Assembly: GCA_023819375.1 (NCBI GenBank)
Contig: JAMWDI010000001.1
Span: forward strand, 107,685-171,684
Origin: Candidatus Omnitrophota bacterium
Lineage (GTDB): Bacteria; Ratteibacteria; UBA8468; B48-G9; JAFGKM01
Direction: 5' to 3'
DNA length: 64,000 nt
Below the pieces are notes generated by a model. It searched no databases. It worked only from the letters and a program-made list of their open reading frames with translations, and had not been told where the DNA came from. Below are positions 991-29,983 of the stretch, piece after piece (the stretch's first letter is position 1; each line of letters starts with the position of its first letter). A program made the translations under genes and the position numbers.

Positions 991-1410
991 TCATTTTTTT
1001 GTTTTCAAAAGACATTCTTTGCAAGTTCCAATTAAATATATATGATGTTCTTCTACTTTATGCCCATTCACTTCTTTACATTTTATAATTGAACACATCT
1101 TAAAAATGTCATAGATTTTTTCACATTTTTTACATTTAAAATGTATGTGTGGTTTTTCAATAAAATCAAATTTAATTTGGTTTTCTTCAATTAAAATCTC
1201 TGAAAGTAATTTTTTTTGACAAAAAAGTTTTAAAGTATTGTAAACCGTTGTAATTGAAAGTGTTGGAATCTTTTTTACTAAATGTTTAAATATTTCATCA
1301 ACAGAAGGGTGAGTTTTATTCTCAATAAAATATTTAAAAACCTCAACTCTTTGGAAAGATGGTTTTATACCTTTCTCTTTGAATAACTTTAAAATTTCTT
1401 CTTTTTTCAT
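991..1410 (-). CDS. Fur-family metal-responsive transcriptional regulator (Fur/Zur/PerR not distinguished)
   Basis: 139 aa. N-terminal winged-helix region with SFQR motif, C-terminal His/Cys-rich metal sites (HIHFKCKKCEK, CKEC). Immediately upstream of the permease. Confidence 0.85.
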   Translation of the reverse strand: MKKEEILKLFKEKGIKPSFQRVEVFKYFIENKTHPSVDEIFKHLVKKIPTLSITTVYNTLKLFCQKKLLSEILIEENQIKFDFIEKPHIHFKCKKCEKIYDIFKMCSIIKCKEVNGHKVEEHHIYLIGTCKECLLKTKK

Positions 1411-1492: not shown

Positions 1493-2293
1493 TTATTTTT
1501 CAAGGACTTCATTCATACTACCTGTTCTATATCCTTCAAGGTCAACTGTTATATATTTATAACCAAGCCTCTTAAATTTTTCTATAATCTTCTTTCTATA
1601 TTTAATCAACTTACTAATCTGATTCCTATCAACTTCAATTCTCGCCAATTCATTATAATCTCTTACTCTTACAATTTTAAATCCCAATGAATATAAAAAT
1701 CTCTCCCCTTTTTCAATTCTTTTCAACTTTTCCTCTACTATTTTTTCTCCATATGGTATTCTTGAAGCAAGGCAAGCCATTTGTGGTTTATTCCATGTTG
1801 GTAAATTTAACTTTTTTGAAATTTCTCTTATTTCCCTTTTTCCTATACCACAATCTTTAAAGGGAGAAATAACATTATAAATCTTTTTGGCCTTCTCCCC
1901 AGGTCTATAATCTTTTTCATCATCTTTATTTGTTCCATCAACAATAAATTTAAAATTATATTTCTTTTTTACTTCTTCAATTTTGCTGAATAATTCTTTT
2001 TTGCACCAAAAACATCTGTCAGGTGGGTTGTTGATAAAATTTCTATTTTTAAATTCCTCTGTTTTTAACTCAATTAATTTAACACCAAGTTTTTTACAGA
2101 AATCTTTTGCAAATTTCCTCTCTTCTTCTGGATAAACTGGAGAAATACCACAAACTGCAATTACATTATCTTTACCAAGAGTATCAACAGAAATTTTTAA
2201 CAAAAGAGAACTATCAACACCTCCAGAATATGCAACAATAATTTTTTCTAATCTTTTTATATATTCTTTTAACTTTTTAATTTTATCTACCAT
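1493..2293 (-). CDS. PP-loop ATP pyrophosphatase, LarE-like (TIGR00268-type) sulfurtransferase
   Basis: 266 aa. SGGVDSS PP-loop at the N-terminus, CxxC (DRCFWCKK) plus a conserved Cys in PQMACLASR. Last gene of the Fe-S/sulfur operon, start overlapping the nfu stop. Confidence 0.6.
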   Translation of the reverse strand: MVDKIKKLKEYIKRLEKIIVAYSGGVDSSLLLKISVDTLGKDNVIAVCGISPVYPEEERKFAKDFCKKLGVKLIELKTEEFKNRNFINNPPDRCFWCKKELFSKIEEVKKKYNFKFIVDGTNKDDEKDYRPGEKAKKIYNVISPFKDCGIGKREIREISKKLNLPTWNKPQMACLASRIPYGEKIVEEKLKRIEKGERFLYSLGFKIVRVRDYNELARIEVDRNQISKLIKYRKKIIEKFKRLGYKYITVDLEGYRTGSMNEVLEK

Positions 2294-2523
2294 TAATCTT
2301 CAACTTCGACAACTTCTTTTACTTCAGGAACTCTATCTTTTATAATAGCCTCTATTCTCATCTTCAAAGTTATTTGAGAAAAAGGACACCCTCTACAAGC
2401 ACCTGTTAATTTCACTTTAACAATTCCATCTTTTGCTTCAACTATTTCACAATCGCCACCTTCTGCTTGCAAAAAACCTCTTACATCTTCAATTGCTTTT
2501 TCAACCTTTTCTTTTAAATCCAT
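2293..2523 (-). CDS. NifU C-terminal domain (Nfu-type) Fe-S carrier protein
   Basis: 76 aa with the CxxC motif (TGACRGCP) characteristic of Nfu/NifU C-terminal domains. Confidence 0.75.
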   Translation of the reverse strand: MDLKEKVEKAIEDVRGFLQAEGGDCEIVEAKDGIVKVKLTGACRGCPFSQITLKMRIEAIIKDRVPEVKEVVEVED

Positions 2524-2542: not shown

Positions 2543-3277
2543 TTATTCTATGTCTTTCCCTAAAATTCCATTTTTTGTTAAATTTATATCTGGATATCCA
2601 TCATTTGCTGGTAAAATTTCTTTTGCTTTTCTAAATTCAACATGACCATCAACAAATAAATAATTTCTACTTCCTTCCCAACTCCACCATCCATTATTCC
2701 CACCTGTGTGATTATCAAGCCATTCTGCAATTATTATTTTTTTGGTAGGATATGCAACCTGTGAAATTTTTTGACCTACTGTAGGAAAAATTTTATTTTT
2801 ATCATATGTATAACTTTTGTCATCCATCTGGTTAATCTGTTCTGGAGAGTGATAAAAACTCATTGAATATCCATATGAAGTAGATTCCCATTTAGTTGGT
2901 GCAGTTTTATCAGAAGGACAGTGAAAAATATCTTTTGGTCTTGAAAATCTCTTTTTAATTTTGTCATAAGAATATGGATTTATATTTACAAAATAAGGGC
3001 CTATAAGAATTCTCCATCCACGTCCCATCCATAGCCAGTAACCTTCAGGAAATGGATCTTGATATGCAGGGAAAAAACCTTCATAATCATCCGTATACAT
3101 TGAAAACGCAATATATATCTGTTTTAAATTATTCATACATACTGCCTGTCTTGCCCTTTCTCTTGCTTTACTTAACGCAGGCAAAATTAAACTTGATAAA
3201 ATTGATACTATCATAACTACTACTAATAATTCAATTAAAACAAAACCATTACTTTTTATTTTTCTTTCTATAGTCAT
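2543..3277 (-). CDS. Prepilin-type N-terminal cleavage/methylation domain protein with DUF1559-like C-terminal region
   Basis: 244 aa. Short basic leader then G-FVLIELLVVVMIVSILSSLILP (class III signal). C-terminal NYLFVDGHVEF resembles the DUF1559 signature. Overlaps iscU by 29 nt. Confidence 0.65.
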   Translation of the reverse strand: MTIERKIKSNGFVLIELLVVVMIVSILSSLILPALSKARERARQAVCMNNLKQIYIAFSMYTDDYEGFFPAYQDPFPEGYWLWMGRGWRILIGPYFVNINPYSYDKIKKRFSRPKDIFHCPSDKTAPTKWESTSYGYSMSFYHSPEQINQMDDKSYTYDKNKIFPTVGQKISQVAYPTKKIIIAEWLDNHTGGNNGWWSWEGSRNYLFVDGHVEFRKAKEILPANDGYPDINLTKNGILGKDIE

Positions 3278-3638
3278 TAATTGCTGCTTTTAATCCTTCT
3301 TCTGCAAGTAATGAGCAATGTTTTTTTATTGGTGGAAGACCTCCAAGGAATTCAACCACATCTTTATTTGATATTTTTTCTGCTTCAGACAATGTCTTTC
3401 CTTTTGCAAGTTCAGTAACAACTGAACTTGTTGCAATTGCTGCAGCGCAACCAAAAGTTTCAAATTTTATATCCTCAATTATCTCTTCTCCCTTTTCATT
3501 TTTTCTAACTTTTATATATATCCACATTACATCACCACAAACAGGATTTCCAACTTTACCTATACCATCTGCATTTTCAATTCTTCCCATATTTCTTGGA
3601 TTTCTAAAATATTCAAGTACTTTTTCTGTATAGTCCAT
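3249..3638 (-). CDS. iscU: Fe-S cluster assembly scaffold IscU/NifU-N
   Basis: 129 aa. Three conserved Cys contexts (PVCGD, FGCAAAIATSS, KKHCS) as in IscU. Confidence 0.8.
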   Translation of the reverse strand: MDYTEKVLEYFRNPRNMGRIENADGIGKVGNPVCGDVMWIYIKVRKNEKGEEIIEDIKFETFGCAAAIATSSVVTELAKGKTLSEAEKISNKDVVEFLGGLPPIKKHCSLLAEEGLKAAINDYRKKNKK

Positions 3639-3673: not shown

Positions 3674-4585
3674 TTAAACATATTCAAGCATCCTCTCAAG
3701 CGATACTTTTGCTTTCTCTAAAATATCTGGTTTTAAATTTATCTCATATTTTTCTTCTTTCAAAGATAAATATAATTTTTCAATTGTTATCTTTTTCATA
3801 TTTGGACATATTTTACCAGAACCAAGCGAATAAAATTCTTTCTCAGGATTTTCTTTTTTAAGTCTATGCAATAATCCTTCTTCTGTTCCTATTATAAATA
3901 TTTTTGAGTTTGACTCTTTTGCTCTTTTTAACATACCAGAAGTTGAATATATACCATCTGCAAGTTTTTGAATTTCTGGGTCACATTCAGGATGAACAAT
4001 TATTTCAGCATTTGGATATTTTTCCCTTGCTTTTTTTACCTCTTCTACAGTAAATTTTCTATGAACAAAACAATAACCATCCCAACATATTATCTCTTTT
4101 TCAGAAACTTTTTGCTTCACATACCAACACAGGTTTTTATCAGGCAAAAATATAATTTTCTTTGCAGGAACATTTCTTACAACTATATCAGCATTTGCAC
4201 TTGTACAACAAACATCTGATATACTTTTAACATCTGCATTTGTATTTACATAGGAAACAATCCAGGCATCAGGATATTTTTCTTTCATCTTTAAAACATC
4301 TTGGTATTTTGCCATATCTGCCAAAGGACATCCAGCATCTAAATCTGGAAGTAAAACTTTTTTATCAGGTGATAATATTTTTGCTGTTTCAGCCATAAAT
4401 TTAACTCCACAAAATACAATAATTTTTGCATCTTTAACTTGGCTTGCCTTTCTTGCAAGTTCAAGAGAATCACCAACAAAATCAGCCAAATCCTGAATTT
4501 CTGGAATTTGATAATTATGGGCAAGAATTATTGCTTCTTTTTCTTTTTTTAATCTTAAAATTTCCTCAATCATTTCTTCTCCCAA
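3674..4585 (-). CDS. nadA: Quinolinate synthase
   Basis: 303 aa with NadA-typical length and conserved blocks (ILAHNYQ, VHPEC, Cys ligands). Confidence 0.8.
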   Translation of the reverse strand: MGEEMIEEILRLKKEKEAIILAHNYQIPEIQDLADFVGDSLELARKASQVKDAKIIVFCGVKFMAETAKILSPDKKVLLPDLDAGCPLADMAKYQDVLKMKEKYPDAWIVSYVNTNADVKSISDVCCTSANADIVVRNVPAKKIIFLPDKNLCWYVKQKVSEKEIICWDGYCFVHRKFTVEEVKKAREKYPNAEIIVHPECDPEIQKLADGIYSTSGMLKRAKESNSKIFIIGTEEGLLHRLKKENPEKEFYSLGSGKICPNMKKITIEKLYLSLKEEKYEINLKPDILEKAKVSLERMLEYV

Positions 4586-5739
4586 AATGGACTCATTTTT
4601 CTTAATTTTTCAACTATCTTTGGTAATACATCAAGAACTTTATCAACATCTTCTTCTTTATTATATTTACCAAGGGAAAACCTTAAAGAACCATGCGCGA
4701 TTTCAGGTGGAATTCCAATTGCAAGTAAAACATGACTTGGTTCAAGTGAACCAGATGTACATGCAGAACCACTTGAAGCATAAATTTTTTCAAAATCAAG
4801 ATTTAAAAGAATACTTTCTCCTTCAACATATTTAACACACAAATTTAATGTATTATATAAGCGATTTTCAGGATGTCCATTTATAATAATTTCAGGTATA
4901 TTTTCCATTATTCCTTTTTCAAGTTTATCTCTTAAATATTTCACCTTCTTTGCCTCTTCTTCCATTTCTTCTTTTGCTATCTCGCAGGCTTTTCCAAGAC
5001 CTATAATACCTGGAACATTATAAGTCCCTCCTCTTTTTCCTTTCTCCTGTTCTCCACCGTGAATAAATGTCTCAATTTTTGTTCCTTTTTTTATATAAAT
5101 TGCTCCAACTCCTTTGGGACCATAAAATTTATGTGCAGATAAAGAAATTATATCAACTCCAAGTTTTTTCACAGAAACAGGAATTTTGCCAACTGTCTGA
5201 ACACAATCTGAGTGAAAATATATACCATTTTCTTTTGCTATTTTTGCTATTTCTTCAATTGGCTGGATTGTTCCTATCTCATTATTTGCATGCATTATTG
5301 TTATTAAAATTGTTTCTTTTTTAATTGATTTTCTTATAAAATCAACATCAACAACTCCATATTTATCAACTGGTGCATATGTAATTTCATATCCAATTTT
5401 ACTTAAAAATTTACAGGTATTCAAAACAGCATGATGCTCTATCTGACTTGTAATTATATGATTTCCTTTATTTTTTAAAGCAAAAGATATTCCCTTTATA
5501 GCCCAGTTATCACTTTCTGTCCCTCCAGAAGTAAAGAATATTTCTTCTGGTTCTGCATCAATCAATTCTGCAACTTTCTGCCTTGCTTTTTCTATTTCTT
5601 TTTTATTTTCTCTTGCTATTTCATAAATTGAACTGGGATTTCCAAATTTTTCAAAAAAATAATCTTTCATAACTTCTAAAACCCTCGGATCCGTTGGTGT
5701 TGTCGCATTATAGTCCATATAAATTGTTTTATTTTCCAT
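4570..5739 (-). CDS. iscS: Cysteine desulfurase (NifS/IscS class, PLP-dependent)
   Basis: 389 aa. PLP-lysine region SLSAHKFYGPKGVGAIYI and active-site loop SSGSACTSG. Overlaps nadA by 16 nt. Confidence 0.85.
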   Translation of the reverse strand: MENKTIYMDYNATTPTDPRVLEVMKDYFFEKFGNPSSIYEIARENKKEIEKARQKVAELIDAEPEEIFFTSGGTESDNWAIKGISFALKNKGNHIITSQIEHHAVLNTCKFLSKIGYEITYAPVDKYGVVDVDFIRKSIKKETILITIMHANNEIGTIQPIEEIAKIAKENGIYFHSDCVQTVGKIPVSVKKLGVDIISLSAHKFYGPKGVGAIYIKKGTKIETFIHGGEQEKGKRGGTYNVPGIIGLGKACEIAKEEMEEEAKKVKYLRDKLEKGIMENIPEIIINGHPENRLYNTLNLCVKYVEGESILLNLDFEKIYASSGSACTSGSLEPSHVLLAIGIPPEIAHGSLRFSLGKYNKEEDVDKVLDVLPKIVEKLRKMSPFWEKK

Positions 5740-5748
5740 TTTTAAATT

Positions 5749-6153
5749 TTAAATGGTTGATATCATTGCATTCGTTGGACATCCCTTTATGCATAATTCA
5801 CATGCAATACATTTTTCTGGTTCAAATTTAACTTCATATGTATTTCTATTAAGGTATAAAGCCCCTGTTGGACACAAAGCAATACAAACTGAGCAATCCG
5901 TACATCTTTCTTTTATCATTCTTATATCACTCTCTATTAGTTGAATTTTTACTCCTTTACTTTTTAATTCTTCTACCGCATCAAAAACATTTTTTTCTTC
6001 TCCTGAAAAAGCAATTACAAGTGTTCCTTCCTCTTCAGGAGAGACAAAGGCTTTTAAAATGTTAAATTCAAGATTGTATTTCCTCACAATAGTTGAAATT
6101 ATTGGCTTATCAACTAAAACTGGCGGGAAATGCATTACAAATTTTTTTTCCAT
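5749..6153 (-). CDS. NIL-domain / 2x[4Fe-4S] ferredoxin fusion protein (homocysteine biosynthesis partner type)
   Basis: 134 aa. N-terminal NIL domain (LEFNILKA) followed by two CxxCxxCxxxCP ferredoxin motifs. Sits directly downstream of the DUF39 gene, the classic pairing. Confidence 0.7.
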   Translation of the reverse strand: MEKKFVMHFPPVLVDKPIISTIVRKYNLEFNILKAFVSPEEEGTLVIAFSGEEKNVFDAVEELKSKGVKIQLIESDIRMIKERCTDCSVCIALCPTGALYLNRNTYEVKFEPEKCIACELCIKGCPTNAMISTI

Positions 6154-6154
6154 A

Positions 6155-7348
6155 TTATACCTCCTTCATTGGTTTAAATTTATATCCTGATTCTGGACCA
6201 GGGAAATAGAAAATTGGTTCAGTTAATAAAAATTCACCACTTTCAATCCACTTTTTTAAAATTTCTGCTATTTCTTTTGCCTTTTTATAACTTGACAGAG
6301 AACCGGTTGGAATTTCTTTTCCCATCAATTTTATCTTCCCACTTTTCAGTTGTGAGTAATTTACATAATCTAAAATATTTCCTGTTGAATTTGGATAATC
6401 ATAACTGTAATCAACTACAGGTGCATAAATCTCTTCATCAGGTATACTTACCCAATTTAATATTTCTTCATTCAAAATTGGTATTGGAATACCAACACCA
6501 ACTATTAAACTCGTTCCATATCCTGTTAAACTTGCTCCTTTTAAAAATTCTACTTTCATCTGTTTTAAATCACCAATTAAAGCAAGCGTTGCTCCAGGAA
6601 TAGTAGGTACTCCATTTTCCCTTCGTTTTACACCTGGATTATATTGAGTCCCCCACCAACAAACATACCCAATCCCTCCTCCAAGAAAAATCCTTGTCCC
6701 AAATCCAATAGTTTTCAAATATGGATCTTTTAAAAGTGGTGATAATTGCCCTGCTGAACAATAATTTGCATTTCCGAGATTTGGTTTTAAGACTCCCATG
6801 TAAGTATAAATTGTTTTATTTGAAAGATTGACTGCAACATTATAATTCTGATAACAATTTCTTGGATTAAAAAGTATTGCTTCATTTATATCATTTATTG
6901 TAATTTTTGTCTTTAAATATTTTTTTGGATAACAGTCAGTGCCATATGCATAGGCAACAAGTTCAATTTCTTTTCCACTTACTAAATCTTCAATTACATG
7001 TCCACCACCATATTTAAACTCGCCTGGATATTTAGTATTCCTTGGATCATCATCTGGCAAAGCAGTCGCTCCAAGATAAACATCAACAGCAGCAAGTCCA
7101 GAATAAGCAGGGACATTATTTAAATATACTCTTCCTCCACCCATTTTGATTTTTTCTTTTGAATGACCAAAATTTAAAAATACACCAGAAGAACACATAG
7201 GGCCAAAAGTTCCAGTTGTTACAACATCTACCTCTTTTGCGAGTTTTTTAACATTTGTAGATTTTTTTAATTCAATTATTTCATCTGCTGTTAAAACTAC
7301 TACTTCTCCTCTTTTTATTTTTTCATTTATTTCTCTTATCGTTTTCAT
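6155..7348 (-). CDS. DUF39/COG1900 homocysteine biosynthesis protein (putative aspartate-semialdehyde sulfurtransferase)
   Basis: 397 aa. GTFGPMCSSG-type glycine-rich core. Adjacent to a NIL-ferredoxin gene and between cysK and the cysteine desulfurase. Confidence 0.6.
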   Translation of the reverse strand: MKTIREINEKIKRGEVVVLTADEIIELKKSTNVKKLAKEVDVVTTGTFGPMCSSGVFLNFGHSKEKIKMGGGRVYLNNVPAYSGLAAVDVYLGATALPDDDPRNTKYPGEFKYGGGHVIEDLVSGKEIELVAYAYGTDCYPKKYLKTKITINDINEAILFNPRNCYQNYNVAVNLSNKTIYTYMGVLKPNLGNANYCSAGQLSPLLKDPYLKTIGFGTRIFLGGGIGYVCWWGTQYNPGVKRRENGVPTIPGATLALIGDLKQMKVEFLKGASLTGYGTSLIVGVGIPIPILNEEILNWVSIPDEEIYAPVVDYSYDYPNSTGNILDYVNYSQLKSGKIKLMGKEIPTGSLSSYKKAKEIAEILKKWIESGEFLLTEPIFYFPGPESGYKFKPMKEV

Positions 7349-7360
7349 TTTTAACTCCTT

Positions 7361-8272
7361 TTAAAAAACTGATAGATACCTTTCACCTGTGTCTGGCAAA
7401 ATAACAACTATTATTTTACCACTATTTTCTTTTCTTTTCCCAATCTTTATTGCAGCAAAAGTAGCAGCACCTGATGAAATTCCACATAATATCCCTTCTT
7501 CTCTTGCTAATCTTTTTGCTGTCTCTATTGCATTCTCGTCGGATACTTTTATTATTTCATCAATTACTTTTAAATTCAATACATCTGGTATAAAACCAGC
7601 ACCGATACCTTGAATTTTATGTCTTCCTGAAAACCCTCCAGATAAAACAGGAGATTTTTCTGGTTCAACAGCAACAATTTTTACATCTTTTTTCCTCTGT
7701 TTTAGCACCTCTCCTACGCCAGTTATTGTTCCTCCAGTCCCTACCCCAGCCACAAATATATCAATTTTCCCATCTGTATCTCTCCATATTTCTTCTGCGG
7801 TTGTCTTTCTATGTATCTCTGGATTTGCTGGATTTTTAAACTGTTGCGGCATAAACGAATTTTTATATTTTTTTAACAATTCTTCTGCTTTTTTTACTGC
7901 TCCTGTCATACCTTCATCTGCTGGTGTTAATACAATTTCAGCACCAAACAAAGATAATAATTTCCTTCTCTCTATACTCATACTCTCTGGCATTGTTAAA
8001 ATTAATTTATATCCTCTTTGTGCACATACAAAAGCAAGACCAATCCCAGTATTTCCACTTGTTGGTTCAATTATAACTGTATCTTTATTTATAAGTCCTT
8101 TTTTTTCAGCATCTTCAATCATACTTACTGCAATCCTATCTTTTACTGAACCACATGGGTTAAAAAATTCAAGTTTTGCATAAATCTCTGCGTAACATCC
8201 TTTCACAACTTTATTCAATTTTACAAGTGGAGTATTCCCAATCAATTCTGTTATATCCTTTGCAAATTTCAT
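7361..8272 (-). CDS. cysK: Cysteine synthase / O-acetylserine sulfhydrylase family (PLP-dependent)
   Basis: Track ORF 7361..8326; I prefer the ATG at 8272 ([19 protein letters not shown]), which has a GGGGAG Shine-Dalgarno 6-10 nt upstream. PLP-binding SVKDR, glycine loop [10 protein letters not shown]. Confidence 0.8.
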
Positions 8273-8288
8273 AAATTTCTCCCCATTT

Positions 8289-8738
8289 TTAGATTTCGTA
8301 AAAGATAACTTTTTTGTCTCTTTCATTCAATTCTTTTTGCTTTTTTATTAATTCATCTAGAGTTATATTATCAAGATATTCCAAAATTTTTTCTTTTATA
8401 TTACACCATAATTTTCTCGCCACACATATTTCACTTCTTTCACATATTTTGCTTTTTTCAACACATTCCGTTGGAGATATTGTGCCTTCAAGGATTTCAA
8501 TTATTTCTTTAATTTTAATTTCTGATGGATCTCTCAAAAAAGCATATCCTCCCTTGCCACCTTTTGCACTTCTTAAAATTCCTGCTTTTTTCAATGTAAG
8601 CATAATATGCTCAAGATATCTTTCTGATAAATTCTGCCTTTTTGCAATATCTTTAACAAAAATTGGTTTTCCTTTATAATAAACTCCAAGATCTATTAAT
8701 GCTCTTAATCCATACCTTGTTCTTGTTGAAATTTTCAT
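8289..8738 (-). CDS. Rrf2-family transcriptional regulator (IscR/NsrR-like, probable Fe-S sensor)
   Basis: 149 aa. N-terminal HTH ([11 protein letters not shown]), C-x6-C-x5-C cluster ([14 protein letters not shown]) matching the cluster-ligand spacing of Fe-S Rrf2 proteins. First gene of the operon. Confidence 0.85.
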
Positions 8739-8744
8739 TTTAGT

Positions 8745-8804
8745 TATTTATTATTTTTGTTATCATATTACTAATATTATACTTAAAATTTTAAAAAATG
8801 TCAA
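8745..8804 (-). promoter_or_regulatory. Consensus promoter (TTGACA, 17 nt, TATAAT) plus candidate operator for the Rrf2-led operon
   Basis: Minus strand: TTGACA (8804..8799), 17-nt spacer, TATAAT (8781..8776), then ATTAGTAATATGATAACAAAAATAATAAA. Contains the inverted repeat ATATTA-G-TAATAT. The same block recurs upstream of hcp. Confidence 0.55.
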
Positions 8805-9033
8805 ATTTTTTTCTTCCAATTAATTCCTTCCATTTTTTCTCGCCTATACATTCTTTTGCATATTTACACCAGTCAATACAGGATGGCATTTCTCTATAAA
8901 CATAACTTTTACACTTTGGACATCTTGTTCTTACTTCATCACTAAATATTTCAACTTCATATCCACATTTTTCACATTTTTTAACTTCAACTTTTAAAAA
9001 TCTTGGGTCTATTCCAGGACATTTCATAACCAA
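8791..9033 (-). CDS. Small Cys-rich zinc-ribbon/rubredoxin-like protein
   Basis: 80 aa with 8 Cys including CEKCGY and CPKC pairs. Overlaps the upstream ferredoxin-domain gene by 10 nt; last gene of the hcp operon. Confidence 0.4.
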   Translation of the reverse strand: MVMKCPGIDPRFLKVEVKKCEKCGYEVEIFSDEVRTRCPKCKSYVYREMPSCIDWCKYAKECIGEKKWKELIGRKKFDIF

Positions 9034-9854
9034 CCTTCCTCTAATATTTCTCCCTTTAAACTTATTACAACTTTTTTTATAGGAATTTTCTTACCACTTT
9101 TTTTAACCCCTTCTTCAACTATTTTCAAAAGACCACTGCAACAAGGAACTTCCATTATAGCAACTGTTATTGTATTTATATTGTTATTAGTAACTATTTG
9201 ACTTATTTTTTCTATATATCTATCAATACCTGTATCAAGTTTAGGGCAGGCAATTATAATTGTTTTCCCTTTTATAAAATCATTATGAAAATTACCATAT
9301 GAATATGCGGTGCAGTCAGCAGCAAAAAGCAAATCCACCTTTTTAAAATATGGAGCAGATGGACTTACAAGATGAAGTTGTATTGGCCATTGTTTAAGTT
9401 GAGATTTAATTTCTACATTTGGTTTACTCTCTTCAGTTTCTTCTCTTCTATCAACAATTTTCACTCCGGGACAACATGAAACTTCAAAAATTTCTGATAT
9501 GTCTATCTCAATATTTTTTTCTTTTAATACCTCAAGTGCCTGTTTTAGATATTCTGTTTCACCATGTTCTTTCAAATGTTTTAAATGAGCAATAATCGTA
9601 TTTTTCCCTTTTTTTATTATATTTTCCATTGTCTTTTTCTCATCATACTCTTCTGCTTCTTTTTCAACAATTTTTATTGCACCAACCGGACAACTACCGA
9701 TACAAGCACCAAGTCCATCACAAAATAAATCACTTATAAGTCGTGCTTTTCCATCTATAATCTGTAATGCACCTTCTGGACAATTGGGGATACACTTTCC
9801 ACATCCAGTACATTTTTCCTCATCAATTTCAATAATTTTTCTTTTCATAAACAC
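9024..9854 (-). CDS. 4Fe-4S dicluster ferredoxin-domain protein (putative Hcp redox partner)
   Basis: 276 aa. N-terminal CTGCGKCIPNCP and CDGLGACIGSCP motifs; C-terminal domain with CCPG and CCSG pairs. Immediately downstream of hcp. Confidence 0.55.
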   Translation of the reverse strand: MFMKRKIIEIDEEKCTGCGKCIPNCPEGALQIIDGKARLISDLFCDGLGACIGSCPVGAIKIVEKEAEEYDEKKTMENIIKKGKNTIIAHLKHLKEHGETEYLKQALEVLKEKNIEIDISEIFEVSCCPGVKIVDRREETEESKPNVEIKSQLKQWPIQLHLVSPSAPYFKKVDLLFAADCTAYSYGNFHNDFIKGKTIIIACPKLDTGIDRYIEKISQIVTNNNINTITVAIMEVPCCSGLLKIVEEGVKKSGKKIPIKKVVISLKGEILEEGWL

Positions 9855-9857
9855 CCC

Positions 9858-11162
9858 CTATTTTAAAATTTCCTTTAAATCCTTTTCTGGTTCTTCAACA
9901 AGTTTTAAATTAAATTCACTTACCAAATATTTTAAAATTTCTTCATTTATCCATGCAGGTATAATTGGACCTATTCTAATCCCTTTAATTCCAAGATATA
10001 ATAAAGACCATAAAATCGCTACTGCTTTCTGTTCCATCCACATTAAAAAATAAGAAACAGGTAAATCATTAATATCTTTAACATTAAAAAGTTCTGCCAA
10101 AGAAGAGATTATATCTATTCCAACTATTGCATCATTACACTGGCCTATATCTATAAGTCGTGGTACCCCTTCAATATCACCAAGAGCCAAATCATTAAAT
10201 CTAAATTTTCCACAAGCAAGAGTTATTACAATTGTATCCTTTGGTAATATTTCAACAAGTTTTCTAAAATATTCATTTTTATTTGTAGGACTATCACATC
10301 CTCCAATAACAAAAACTCTTCTTATTTTACCGTTTTCTATCAGTTCCTTTATTTTTTCTTTTGAAGACAAAATTGATGATAAAGAAAAACCAGTTGTTAA
10401 AATAGTATCTCCATTTTTTTCAGGTAAATCAGGTAATGTTTTTGCTTTTTCAATGACCTCTGAAAAATCATATCCAGTTATATGTTTAACTTCTGGAAGT
10501 CCTACAATGCCTGTTGTAAAAATTCTATCTTTATATTCATCTTTTGGAATTAAAACACAATTGGAACTTCCAACAATACAAGCAGGAATTTCTGAAAATA
10601 ATTTTTTCTGGTCATACCATGCCTTTCCCAAATTTCCAATAAGATTATCATATTTTCTTATGCCTGGATATCCATGAGCAGGTAAAAGTTCTGAATGAGT
10701 ATAAACATTTATTCCTTTATCTTTGGATTGTTTTAAAATTTCCTCAAGAACTTTTAAACTATGACCTGTAACTATTATACCTTTCCCTTTTCTTGTTCCT
10801 GTAAATACTTCAACTGACTCTGGTTCTCCATATGTTTCAATATGTGCTTTTTTTAACAATTTCATTGTTTCTATATTTATTTTTCCAATATCAAGGGCAA
10901 GTTTAATAAATTTTTCAGTATCAAAATTCACATTTGTTAATGTTGAATATAAAGTTTCAACAAGAAATTTCTCAAGTTTACTGTTTCTATATCCAAGTTC
11001 AGATGCATGATAAAGATAAGCACTTATACCTTTAAGACCAAAAATTAAATTATCCTGCAATCTTGATAATGTTGGACTTTTACCACATACACCATAATTT
11101 ATACATCCTTTTCCCTGACTTGTTTGACTACACTGATAACAAAACATTTTAAAATCTGCCAT
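9858..11162 (-). CDS. hcp: Hybrid cluster protein (prismane; hydroxylamine reductase)
   Basis: 434 aa. Hallmark N-terminal MFCYQCSQT...GC motif and multiple conserved Cys/His/Glu ligand blocks. GGAGG Shine-Dalgarno upstream. Confidence 0.85.
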
Positions 11163-29213: not shown

Positions 29214-29588
29214 ATGAAAAAAAATAAAAAGAAAGGTTTTACTTTGATTGAATTGATGACAGTGGTAATTATTGTTGGAATTTTAGCGTCAGTTGCTGTT
29301 CCTCTTTATAGAGGACAAGTCAAAAGAGCAATGGCAGCAGAAGGAGCAGCATTACTTGGTTCTGTAAGAACTGCTGAAAGAGTCTATTATGCTGAACATG
29401 GAAAATATACAGATGATAAAACAAAACTGGGGATAGATACAACTGGAAACAAATATTTTAAAGATTATACGATTACACTTACAGGTGGAGGCACTGGATT
29501 TATCGCAACAACAACTGGAGAAGGAGATGCTGCAGGAATTACTGTATCCATTGACCAGGATGGAAATTTAACTTATTCTGGAATTTAA
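29214..29588 (+). CDS. pilA: Type IV major pilin (copy 1)
   Basis: 124 aa. Leader MKKNKKKG then FTLIELMTVVIIVGILA (class III signal, Glu at +5); small Gly/Thr-rich C-terminal domain. Confidence 0.85.
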   Translation: MKKNKKKGFTLIELMTVVIIVGILASVAVPLYRGQVKRAMAAEGAALLGSVRTAERVYYAEHGKYTDDKTKLGIDTTGNKYFKDYTITLTGGGTGFIATTTGEGDAAGITVSIDQDGNLTYSGI

Positions 29589-29608: not shown

Positions 29609-29983
29609 ATGAAAAAAAACAAAAAGAAAGGTTTTACTTTAATTGAGTTGATGACAGTGGTAATTATTGTTGGAATTCTTGCTGCTATTGCTGTTCCTCT
29701 TTATAGAAGCAATGTCAAAAGAGCAATGGCAGCAGAAGGAGCAGCATTACTTGGTTCTGTAAGAACTGCTGAAAGAGTCTATTATGCTGAACATGGAAAA
29801 TATACAGATGATAAAACAAAACTGGCAGTAGATACAAGTGGAAACAAATATTTTAAAGATTATACGATTACACTTACAGGTGGAGGCACTGGATTTGTCG
29901 CAACAACAACTGGAGAAGGAGATGCTGCAGGAATTACTGTATCCATTGACCAGGATGGAAATTTAACTTATTCTGGAATTTAG
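29609..29983 (+). CDS. pilA: Type IV major pilin (copy 2, tandem paralogue)
   Basis: 124 aa, same architecture as copy 1, own AGGGAGGG Shine-Dalgarno, TAG stop instead of TAA. Confidence 0.85.
   Translation: MKKNKKKGFTLIELMTVVIIVGILAAIAVPLYRSNVKRAMAAEGAALLGSVRTAERVYYAEHGKYTDDKTKLAVDTSGNKYFKDYTITLTGGGTGFVATTTGEGDAAGITVSIDQDGNLTYSGI

Follow-up and report, generated by a model that had tools for sequence, protein, structure and literature searches.

A low-copy DUF1559 variant that recurs among sulfide-dependent sulfur-trafficking and Fe-S assembly genes of uncultured bacteria

The DUF1559 proteins (PF07596), which are among the largest function-unassigned families of Planctomycetota and related phyla, are reported at 68 to 74 copies per genome in two planctomycetes; they form the largest paralog group of Planctopirus limnophila, with 68 copies of which two are essential (PMC10632474), and have been termed a putative solute-binding family in Rhodopirellula (PMC2754498). 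Neither study assigns them a function, the family is rarely mentioned in the literature searched, and nothing relevant on the H-X9-DG motif or on Ratteibacteria was found there. Here we analyse one such gene, called X, in a 64,000-nucleotide stretch of a Candidatus Omnitrophota genome (contig JAMWDI010000001.1, positions 107,685 to 171,684; hereafter the window), where it lies between two iron-sulfur (Fe-S) scaffold genes. X (2543-3277, minus strand) starts with ATG, encodes a 244-residue prepilin-type protein of a short DUF1559 subfamily, and is the sole DUF1559-type gene of the window. A protein identical to it is already present at NCBI as 'DUF1559 domain-containing protein', in a metagenome-assembled genome (MAG) labelled Ca. 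Omnitrophica, and by name X is already known as a DUF1559 member. What is new is that, judging from its own motif set, a H-X19-DG signature, low copy number, embedding in sulfur operons and fusion to MnmA, the group around X represents a distinct DUF1559 variant, undescribed in the literature found; in this and several other lineages, X has remained coupled in the genome to Fe-S genes and to genes of sulfide-dependent sulfur trafficking through many rearrangements, and this coupling is well supported. Loci and proteins of relatives are denoted below by L- and P-numbers, respectively.

The N-terminus of X (MTIERKIKSNG/FVLIELLVVVMIVSILSSLILPAL) carries the class III (prepilin) signal that a previous sequence-only reading of this DNA had described (3179-3277, minus strand): an 11-residue basic leader is followed by a predicted cleavage site between G11 (-1) and F12 (+1), by E16 (+5) and by a hydrophobic alpha1-N helix (residues 12-33). 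An alignment of 58 homologs (A1) shows an invariant E16 and at least 90% conservation of F12. TIGR02532 (prepilin domain) passes its cut-off (23.3 against 16.3 bits) and, together with the KSNG/FVLIE motif, identifies a prepilin N-terminal domain, while PF07963 (N_methyl) stays under its own (17.2 against 21.2 bits). The proposal of a prepilin-like, DUF1559-type gene within an Fe-S operon was likewise borne out: with PF07596, X reaches 45.4 bits where 23.3 are required (E-value 1.4e-11), the match being partial and covering residues 37-150 of X and positions 2-120 of the 268-position profile, and the neighbours are nifU and nfu. With the DUF1559 proteins of Planctomycetota X shares the prepilin N-terminus, a SKARExAxxxxCxxNLKQI stretch, a CPSD motif and a C-terminal DG motif. 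X does not have the nature of a periplasmic solute-binding protein, as the Pfam identifier SBP_bac_10 of the family would suggest.

The second profile put forward in the sequence-only reading, TIGR04294 (H-X9-DG-CTERM), did not follow. X scores 17.0 bits, narrowly under the cut-off of 19, and matches only over residues 205-216 (model positions 10-21), so that its ...FVDGHV... pairs with the latter half of the model; both score and spacing separate it from this family. The segment NYLFVDGHVEF, previously taken for the C-terminus, corresponds to residues 205-215, with 29 residues still to come. In X the motif is modified to H190-X19-D210-G211 (EWLDNHTGGNNGWWSWEGSRNYLFVDG; 2645-2710, minus strand), because relative to the canonical H-X9-DG it carries a conserved insertion of about 10 residues, GWWxWxGxR, which is present subfamily-wide and with it the spacing of 19 residues from His to Asp; H190, W197, W198, W200, G202, R204 and D210 are all invariant in A1. 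In total, about 35 positions are invariant among the 58 homologs, including E16, C47, C120, D123, H143, H190, D210 and many Trp, Tyr and Arg residues, and the subfamily is further characterized by the motifs WLWMGRGWR, CPSDxTAP, ESTSYxYSMxFYHSPEQI, EWLxNH, GWWxWxGxRNYLFVDGHV and PANDGxPDxNLTxxGIxGxD. Another insertion, of about 12 residues, lies in the alpha-beta loop within residues 101-116 (YSYDKIKKRFSR; 2930-2977, minus strand) and falls in gap columns of A1: it is absent in nearly all sequences of the alignment, only P0061 among the aligned ones shown also having extra residues, and in the predicted structure its predicted local distance difference test score (pLDDT) is below 50. A search of cluster representatives with the A1 profile matched 359,923 of them at E<=1e-3; at E<=1e-10 the number is 197,180, and at E<=1e-30 just 82, which delimits a small, sharply bounded subfamily within a giant superfamily.

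X has a type IV pilin or pseudopilin fold, as defined by a long N-terminal alpha1 helix packed against a 3-4-stranded antiparallel beta-sheet and by structural similarity to solved pilins. Sequence searches of the PDB match just the generic pilin N-terminal helix (geopilin, E ~1e-5) and found no solved DUF1559 structure; a Foldseek search of the PDB gave no match at E<=0.001, the sole pilin N-helix match having a probability of 0.51. Among the matches listed from a scan of metagenome contigs with A1 are distant pilins at 26-59% local identity. The GspG profile TIGR01710 reaches 38.4 bits, far under its cut-off of 88.85, and matches only the N-terminal 62 residues, indicating that X is no GspG equivalog. 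With respect to the type II secretion pseudopilin GspG (PulG/EpsG) and to type IV pilins such as Thermus PilA4, X differs in its head, which has a long alpha-beta loop and exceeds theirs by about 100 residues, and in that its gene sits beside nifU and nfu, outside any gsp or pil operon. Taken together, fold and signal indicate a putatively exported, membrane-anchored pilin-like protein. Pilins are implicated in metal and mineral acquisition, as in the case of Geobacter PilA and of Synechocystis PilA1 (iron and manganese uptake); a comparable link between a pilin-type protein and inorganic nutrient acquisition is what we propose for X, whose similarity to geopilin extends over no more than the generic N-terminal helix.

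The start of X overlaps by 29 nt the 3' end of the nifU(N)/iscU-type Fe-S scaffold gene (3249-3638, minus strand; PF01592, 1.3e-46; TIGR03419, 185 bits), and its end is separated by a 19-nt gap from nfu, which encodes a NifU C-terminal domain (2293-2523, minus strand; PF01106, 2.8e-25), as had been noted before. This gap contains an AGGAGG Shine-Dalgarno sequence for nfu, whereas upstream of the ATG of X there is only an AAGGA about 17 nt away and no well-spaced Shine-Dalgarno sequence; as X also starts inside nifU, its translational coupling to nifU is likely. The prepilin leader is preserved by one in-frame start codon only, the ATG at 3277. Both flanking genes match TIGR02000, the model of multidomain NifU, one at its N-terminal module (positions 3-123) and the other at its C-terminal module (positions 222-288). 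In multidomain NifU, IscU-like and Nfu-like domains are joined in one polypeptide; here they are separate genes with X between them, and X is unlike the central [2Fe-2S] module.

Such a split, together with the unexpected nature of the gene, could suggest an insertion between iscU and nfu, either as a horizontally acquired passenger or as a mobile-element remnant, which was one of two readings offered initially. The junction is indeed variable, since in L010 (16261-17731, plus strand) it is filled by genes for an RseC_MucC membrane protein and a 373-residue protein in place of X. However, X is typical of its surroundings: in GC content, in GC content at third codon positions (GC3) and in synonymous codon usage it departs by less than 1 standard deviation from the 64 long open reading frames (ORFs) of the window. 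The pairwise ratio of nonsynonymous to synonymous substitution rates (dN/dS) is 0.16-0.25 for X, comparable to 0.12-0.19 for larE and about 0.2 for fur and higher than the 0.04-0.15 of core enzymes, at dS values of about 0.8-1.2. Furthermore, X occupies the same slot between nifU and nfu in three other MAGs, at 71-73% identity (L002/L007 from Ca. Ratteibacteria, L003/L008, and L009), at dS near 1; no transposase or integrase was seen among the ORFs flanking X, flanking repeats not having been searched for. A recent insertion or horizontal transfer is effectively ruled out by the compositional z-scores below 1, dN/dS and conserved synteny, and any form of the insertion scenario is now highly improbable. 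Judged by composition, substitution pattern and gene order, X is a native, functional and vertically inherited gene under purifying selection. Conservation between iscU and nfu combined with a cytoplasmic role had been named in the sequence-only reading as grounds for abandoning it; the conserved slot was found, but a cytoplasmic role was not, fold and signal pointing to export instead.

The position of X changes among relatives while its gene neighbourhood stays of the same kind. In L004, L005 and L010, X (65-67% identical) is located between a Cys-rich zinc-ribbon ORF and the series ThiI-like-Rrf2-(CysK/Thi4)-HcyBio-NIL-Fer4-NifS-NadA, with junctions around it that overlap by 1-4 nt, and the neighbouring genes are about 69-94% (mostly 83-94%) identical at the amino acid level to those of the window, on a par with the genomes that share the nifU slot. 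A bootstrapped neighbour-joining (NJ) tree recovers a nifU-slot clade (93%) and a zinc-ribbon-slot clade (100%) as sisters (88%), which argues for relocation within the operon and not for a new acquisition, and also speaks against the insertion scenario above. As a side observation, the 373-residue protein at the nifU-nfu junction of L010 has weak similarity (24% over 129 residues) to a URO-D-like protein beside an X paralog in L016.

Further relatives, in which X is 48-60% identical, occupy other slots. X is found between HcyBio and ThiI-like genes (L021, L175), after NIR_SIR-TusA (L024), between Cys_Met_Meta_PP and Rrf2-Hcp (L022), in the order cysK<>X<-HMA-ATPase (L012), after Thi4 (L015, L029 and L167, the last followed by a 2-thiouracil desulfurase), between NIL-Fer4 and AIRS-OEP-RND (L169), between Thi4-DUF6775 and Fer4-CsoR-OEP-RND (L172), between RND and HcyBio (L013), and at the end of a CysK-...-ThiI-like-MnmA-LarE series in two Brocadiaceae genomes (L033, L036); many of these arrangements show 1-4-nt overlaps. 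Overall, of 34 distinct loci that do not belong to a clade linked to glmS (see below), about 22 place X immediately amid sulfur or Fe-S genes, in at least 13 types of arrangement, as opposed to only 2-3 of about 55 glmS-clade loci with a sulfur marker within 10 kb, which serve as an internal control; neither set of counts is phylogeny-corrected. With that proviso, the co-location goes beyond what shared gene-order ancestry provides. In the tree, the sulfur-linked loci are paraphyletic through the non-glmS part, with non-sulfur paralog groups nested among them. Two loci were not counted as sulfur-linked though their neighbours touch sulfur metabolism, namely L176 (MiaB-like) and L035 (RuBisCO-like, PfkB). 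In the latter, a Brocadiaceae locus (L035:10676-13157, plus strand), X is followed by a RuBisCO-like protein of form IV type and a PfkB kinase, genes that generally go with the salvage of methionine or sulfur.

A second type of association is provided by gene fusion. In a Sedimentisphaerales MAG, L064:8879-10690 (plus strand) encodes a complete MnmA tRNA 2-thiouridylase in frame with X, 603 residues in all, with the junction ...VAGGTITAQK/GFTLVELL... and in the context of Prok-JAB, NIR_SIR-TusA and CysK. The sole other full-length match to this ORF in a database search is P0271 (604 residues, 71% identity, 99% coverage), which occurs on three contigs from several sources and has the junction ...VAGGTILRDHPRQER/GFTLIELL.... 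Both sequences are of Planctomycetota type and share the same layout: a whole MnmA, which in its free-standing form ends at the equivalent ...GGGIIE, a basic linker of 4-9 residues, GFTL(I/V)ELL with the prepilin cleavage motif intact, and a whole X. Retention of the fusion in two sequences that are 71% identical makes an assembly error unlikely. No other fusion was found when about 7,600 relatives of MnmA and X were scored. P0130 and P0140 were considered as further fusions and rejected as probable over-extended start calls, located on high-GC contigs and with low-complexity N-termini. The MnmA-X fusion may be a Rosetta-stone sign of a functional link, and with the at least 13 arrangements among sulfur and Fe-S genes it gives substance to the uncharacterised link that had been raised as the alternative to an insertion.

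The fusions also allow for a role on the cytoplasmic side, in which the transmembrane helix of X would anchor or organise PP-loop enzymes (MnmA, ThiI-like, LarE) at the membrane; the prepilin site would stay uncut, and the fusion would represent such a tether in covalent form. The full length of both partners in the in-frame fusions fits such a role, as does the fact that PP-loop enzymes are the commonest direct neighbours of X, being ThiI-like in L004, L005, L010, L015, L021 and L175, and LarE in L033 and L036. Nevertheless, the most strongly conserved part of X is not the helix but the extracytoplasmic head, which holds about 30 invariant residues; the fusions retain G/A(-1)-F(+1)-E(+5), a better fit to processing than to a permanent tether, and they number just two among the relatives scored. 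We regard this explanation as improbable.

From gene order and the fusions, a genuine functional coupling of X to sulfur or Fe-S metabolism falls just short of an even call, and a number of observations weigh against it. One is the glmS clade itself (92.5% support in the bootstrapped NJ tree), which comprises most Planctomycetota homologs: in Phycisphaerae, Sedimentisphaerales and 'Pirellulales', orthologs that are 45-50% identical to X and have the same invariant residues directly follow glmS in 39 loci, 3-60 nt downstream of it and with hisH and hisF divergent upstream (e.g. L020, L025, L028, L032), so that a sulfur-specific function is not universal and may not exist. For this subfamily, glmS represents a second conserved operon setting, unrelated to the first. 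In the sulfur-linked part of the tree itself, paralogs occur between HK-RR-RR and ETF (L018, L019, L174), between ceramidase and aspartokinase (L171), and as X<>URO-D-like (L011, L016), L016 deriving from the MAG that also holds the nifU-slot copy L007. Moreover, rearrangements tend to stay local and keep genes near one another, which makes persistence within a supercluster of 10-25 kb weaker evidence than it appears. The fusion, too, may be a neutral outcome of tight adjacency, since cleavage of the leader would part the two products and an in-frame prepilin fusion could be tolerated neutrally. Finally, no prepilin peptidase (A24-peptidase) motif was found in the 64-kb window, a result that is uninformative for the remainder of the genome.

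Because of the glmS clade and of the paralogs beside non-sulfur genes, co-expression alone stays a serious contender, with a real if minority share of our expectation. X would then be a housekeeping envelope protein resembling a pseudopilin, such as a GspG-type endopilus subunit or a glycan- or envelope-binding factor, riding on constitutively expressed housekeeping operons (glmS in Planctomycetota, the sulfur/Fe-S operon here) without any sulfur mechanism. This is hard to square with at least 13 arrangements adjoining sulfur or Fe-S genes in several phylum-level lineages, with the retention of X in small cluster fragments (no more than Thi4 followed by X at L015, L029 and L167, and cysK<>X at L012) and with the two MnmA-X fusions, which indicate a specific partner class. 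In one Planctomycetota subclade (L039, L050, L058, L061, L065, L074), X is followed by a conserved block on the opposite strand, at the start of which lie two further genes of prepilin type (clusters c18 and c19), accompanied by three more conserved genes; these may be assembly or minor-pilin partners of X.

In the window, X belongs to a tightly packed run of 11 minus-strand genes that spans about 7.3 kb between rrf2 and larE; where neighbours do not overlap, at most 35 nt separate them. The run includes rrf2 (8289-8738), cysK (7361-8326), HcyBio/COG1900 (6155-7348), a NIL-ferredoxin gene (5749-6153), nifS (4570-5739) and nadA (3674-4585), all identified by Pfam, followed by nifU(N), X, nfu and, as the last gene, a larE-type PP-loop sulfur transferase (1493-2293; TIGR00268, 329.5 bits, cut-off 150). 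A fur-family regulator gene (991-1410, minus strand; PF01475), with a promoter-like site at 1475-1448, marks the downstream operon boundary. At the other end lies a perfect sigma-70 consensus TTGACA-17-TATAAT (8776-8804, minus strand), the likely operon promoter as far as a consensus match can tell; this 12/12 match is the sole one between 800 and 9500, overlaps the stop codon of a zinc-ribbon ORF and stands just upstream of rrf2. No intergenic terminator-like site was found from rrf2 to larE and no terminator next to X, the sole minus-strand match (4753-4738) being inside nifS and the count below the shuffle mean. A search for an internal promoter near X was equally negative, with 38 promoter-like sites against a shuffle mean of 45.3, the weak 9/12 matches in nifU being uninformative. 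All these genes, rrf2 to larE, probably form a single transcription unit controlled by Rrf2 (IscR/CymR-type).

The zinc-ribbon ORF at the head of this sulfur cluster, directly upstream of rrf2 (8791-9033, minus strand; 80 residues), has the Cys pattern CPGxD...CxxCG...CPKC...CIDWC...C and is 56% identical to an L010 ORF by tblastn, with only weak Zn_ribbon matches and no Pfam family above cut-off; its orthologs are the genes directly upstream of X in L004, L005 and L010, in L005 and L010 in a long form of 195-200 residues. Directly upstream of it in the window (9024-11162, minus strand) are genes for a hybrid-cluster (prismane) protein and a 276-residue ferredoxin-domain protein, and an Rrf2-Hcp association recurs next to X in L022. 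HcyBio/COG1900 and NIL-ferredoxin (5749-7348, minus strand) are the methanogen-type pair for sulfide-dependent homocysteine synthesis and share the operon with larE (1493-2293), nifS, nifU and nadA, and the clusters of relatives additionally hold Thi4, ThiI-like, TtuA, ThiS/ThiF, NIR_SIR-TusA and DUF6775. Judging from gene content, the genes from HcyBio to larE together with these additions form a large sulfide-assimilation supercluster in uncultured lineages labelled Omnitrophota or Ratteibacteria.

Metal-related genes are a recurrent further component. On the source contig, the region is continued by a block of metal and oxidative-stress genes, and genes for heavy-metal export or homeostasis recur beside X or the sulfur clusters in L012, L013, L022, L169 and L172, in the window below position 991 and at L001:3478-4707; they include an HMA P-type ATPase, RND pumps with OEP, CusB-like and ACR_tran components, CsoR, an ArsP_1/HMA permease, an AIRS-domain protein and P-II. 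Together with Fur, the recurrent efflux genes are hints of metal-sulfide chemistry; they prove nothing. The type IV pilus locus of the window, placed at 25-36 kb in the sequence-only reading and found to encode PilB, PilT, PilC, PilM, a secretin and a PilX_N protein, is 22 kb away from X and contains all four other prepilin motifs of the window. Tandem genes for 124-residue pilins with near-identical N-termini (MKKNKKKGFTLIELMTVVIIVGILA...) lie within it at 29214-29588 and 29609-29983 (plus strand), as do two minor-pilin-like ORFs at about 33.8 and 34.2 kb.

HcyBio, Thi4, ThiI-like, LarE, MnmA and TtuA are users of sulfide or persulfide, as known from archaeal and anaerobic homologs. For X we hypothesize a specific extracytoplasmic role in sulfur or metal acquisition. 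As a member of one putative Rrf2-controlled transcription unit, X would be co-produced with the proteins of Fe-S and sulfur metabolism, probably in smaller amounts. It would be inserted N-in/C-out and cut by prepilin peptidase between G11 and F12, and mature X would be an inner-membrane-anchored protein or the subunit of a short pseudopilus, whose invariant head, with its many aromatic, His, Asp and Arg residues, would face the periplasm or cell surface. There, outside the cytoplasm and on the supply side of the pathway, X might bind or capture a substrate, either reduced sulfur or a metal sulfide, or act as its sensor, and this substrate would feed the sulfide-using enzymes encoded nearby (HcyBio, Thi4, ThiI-like, LarE, MnmA and NifS/NifU). 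In its most explicit form, the subfamily would be the extracytoplasmic arm of anaerobic sulfur or iron-sulfide acquisition, a pilin-like capture module, and in the fusions MnmA would be a leader released by prepilin peptidase; this full version is speculative and, as it stands, unlikely. If true, the 370-residue MnmA as a 'leader peptide' would be the first enzyme-sized prepilin leader, and the fusion would force a sulfur-transfer enzyme of the cytoplasm and its partner in the envelope to be made at a 1:1 ratio.

For the DUF1559 family, these results isolate a small, highly conserved and low-copy branch with a reproducible set of partners, consisting of sulfide-dependent sulfur-trafficking and Fe-S assembly genes or, in one clade, of glmS. 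They also illustrate that an odd-looking gene within an operon can be one of its conserved members and not an insertion, and they give a first functional lead for one branch of DUF1559.

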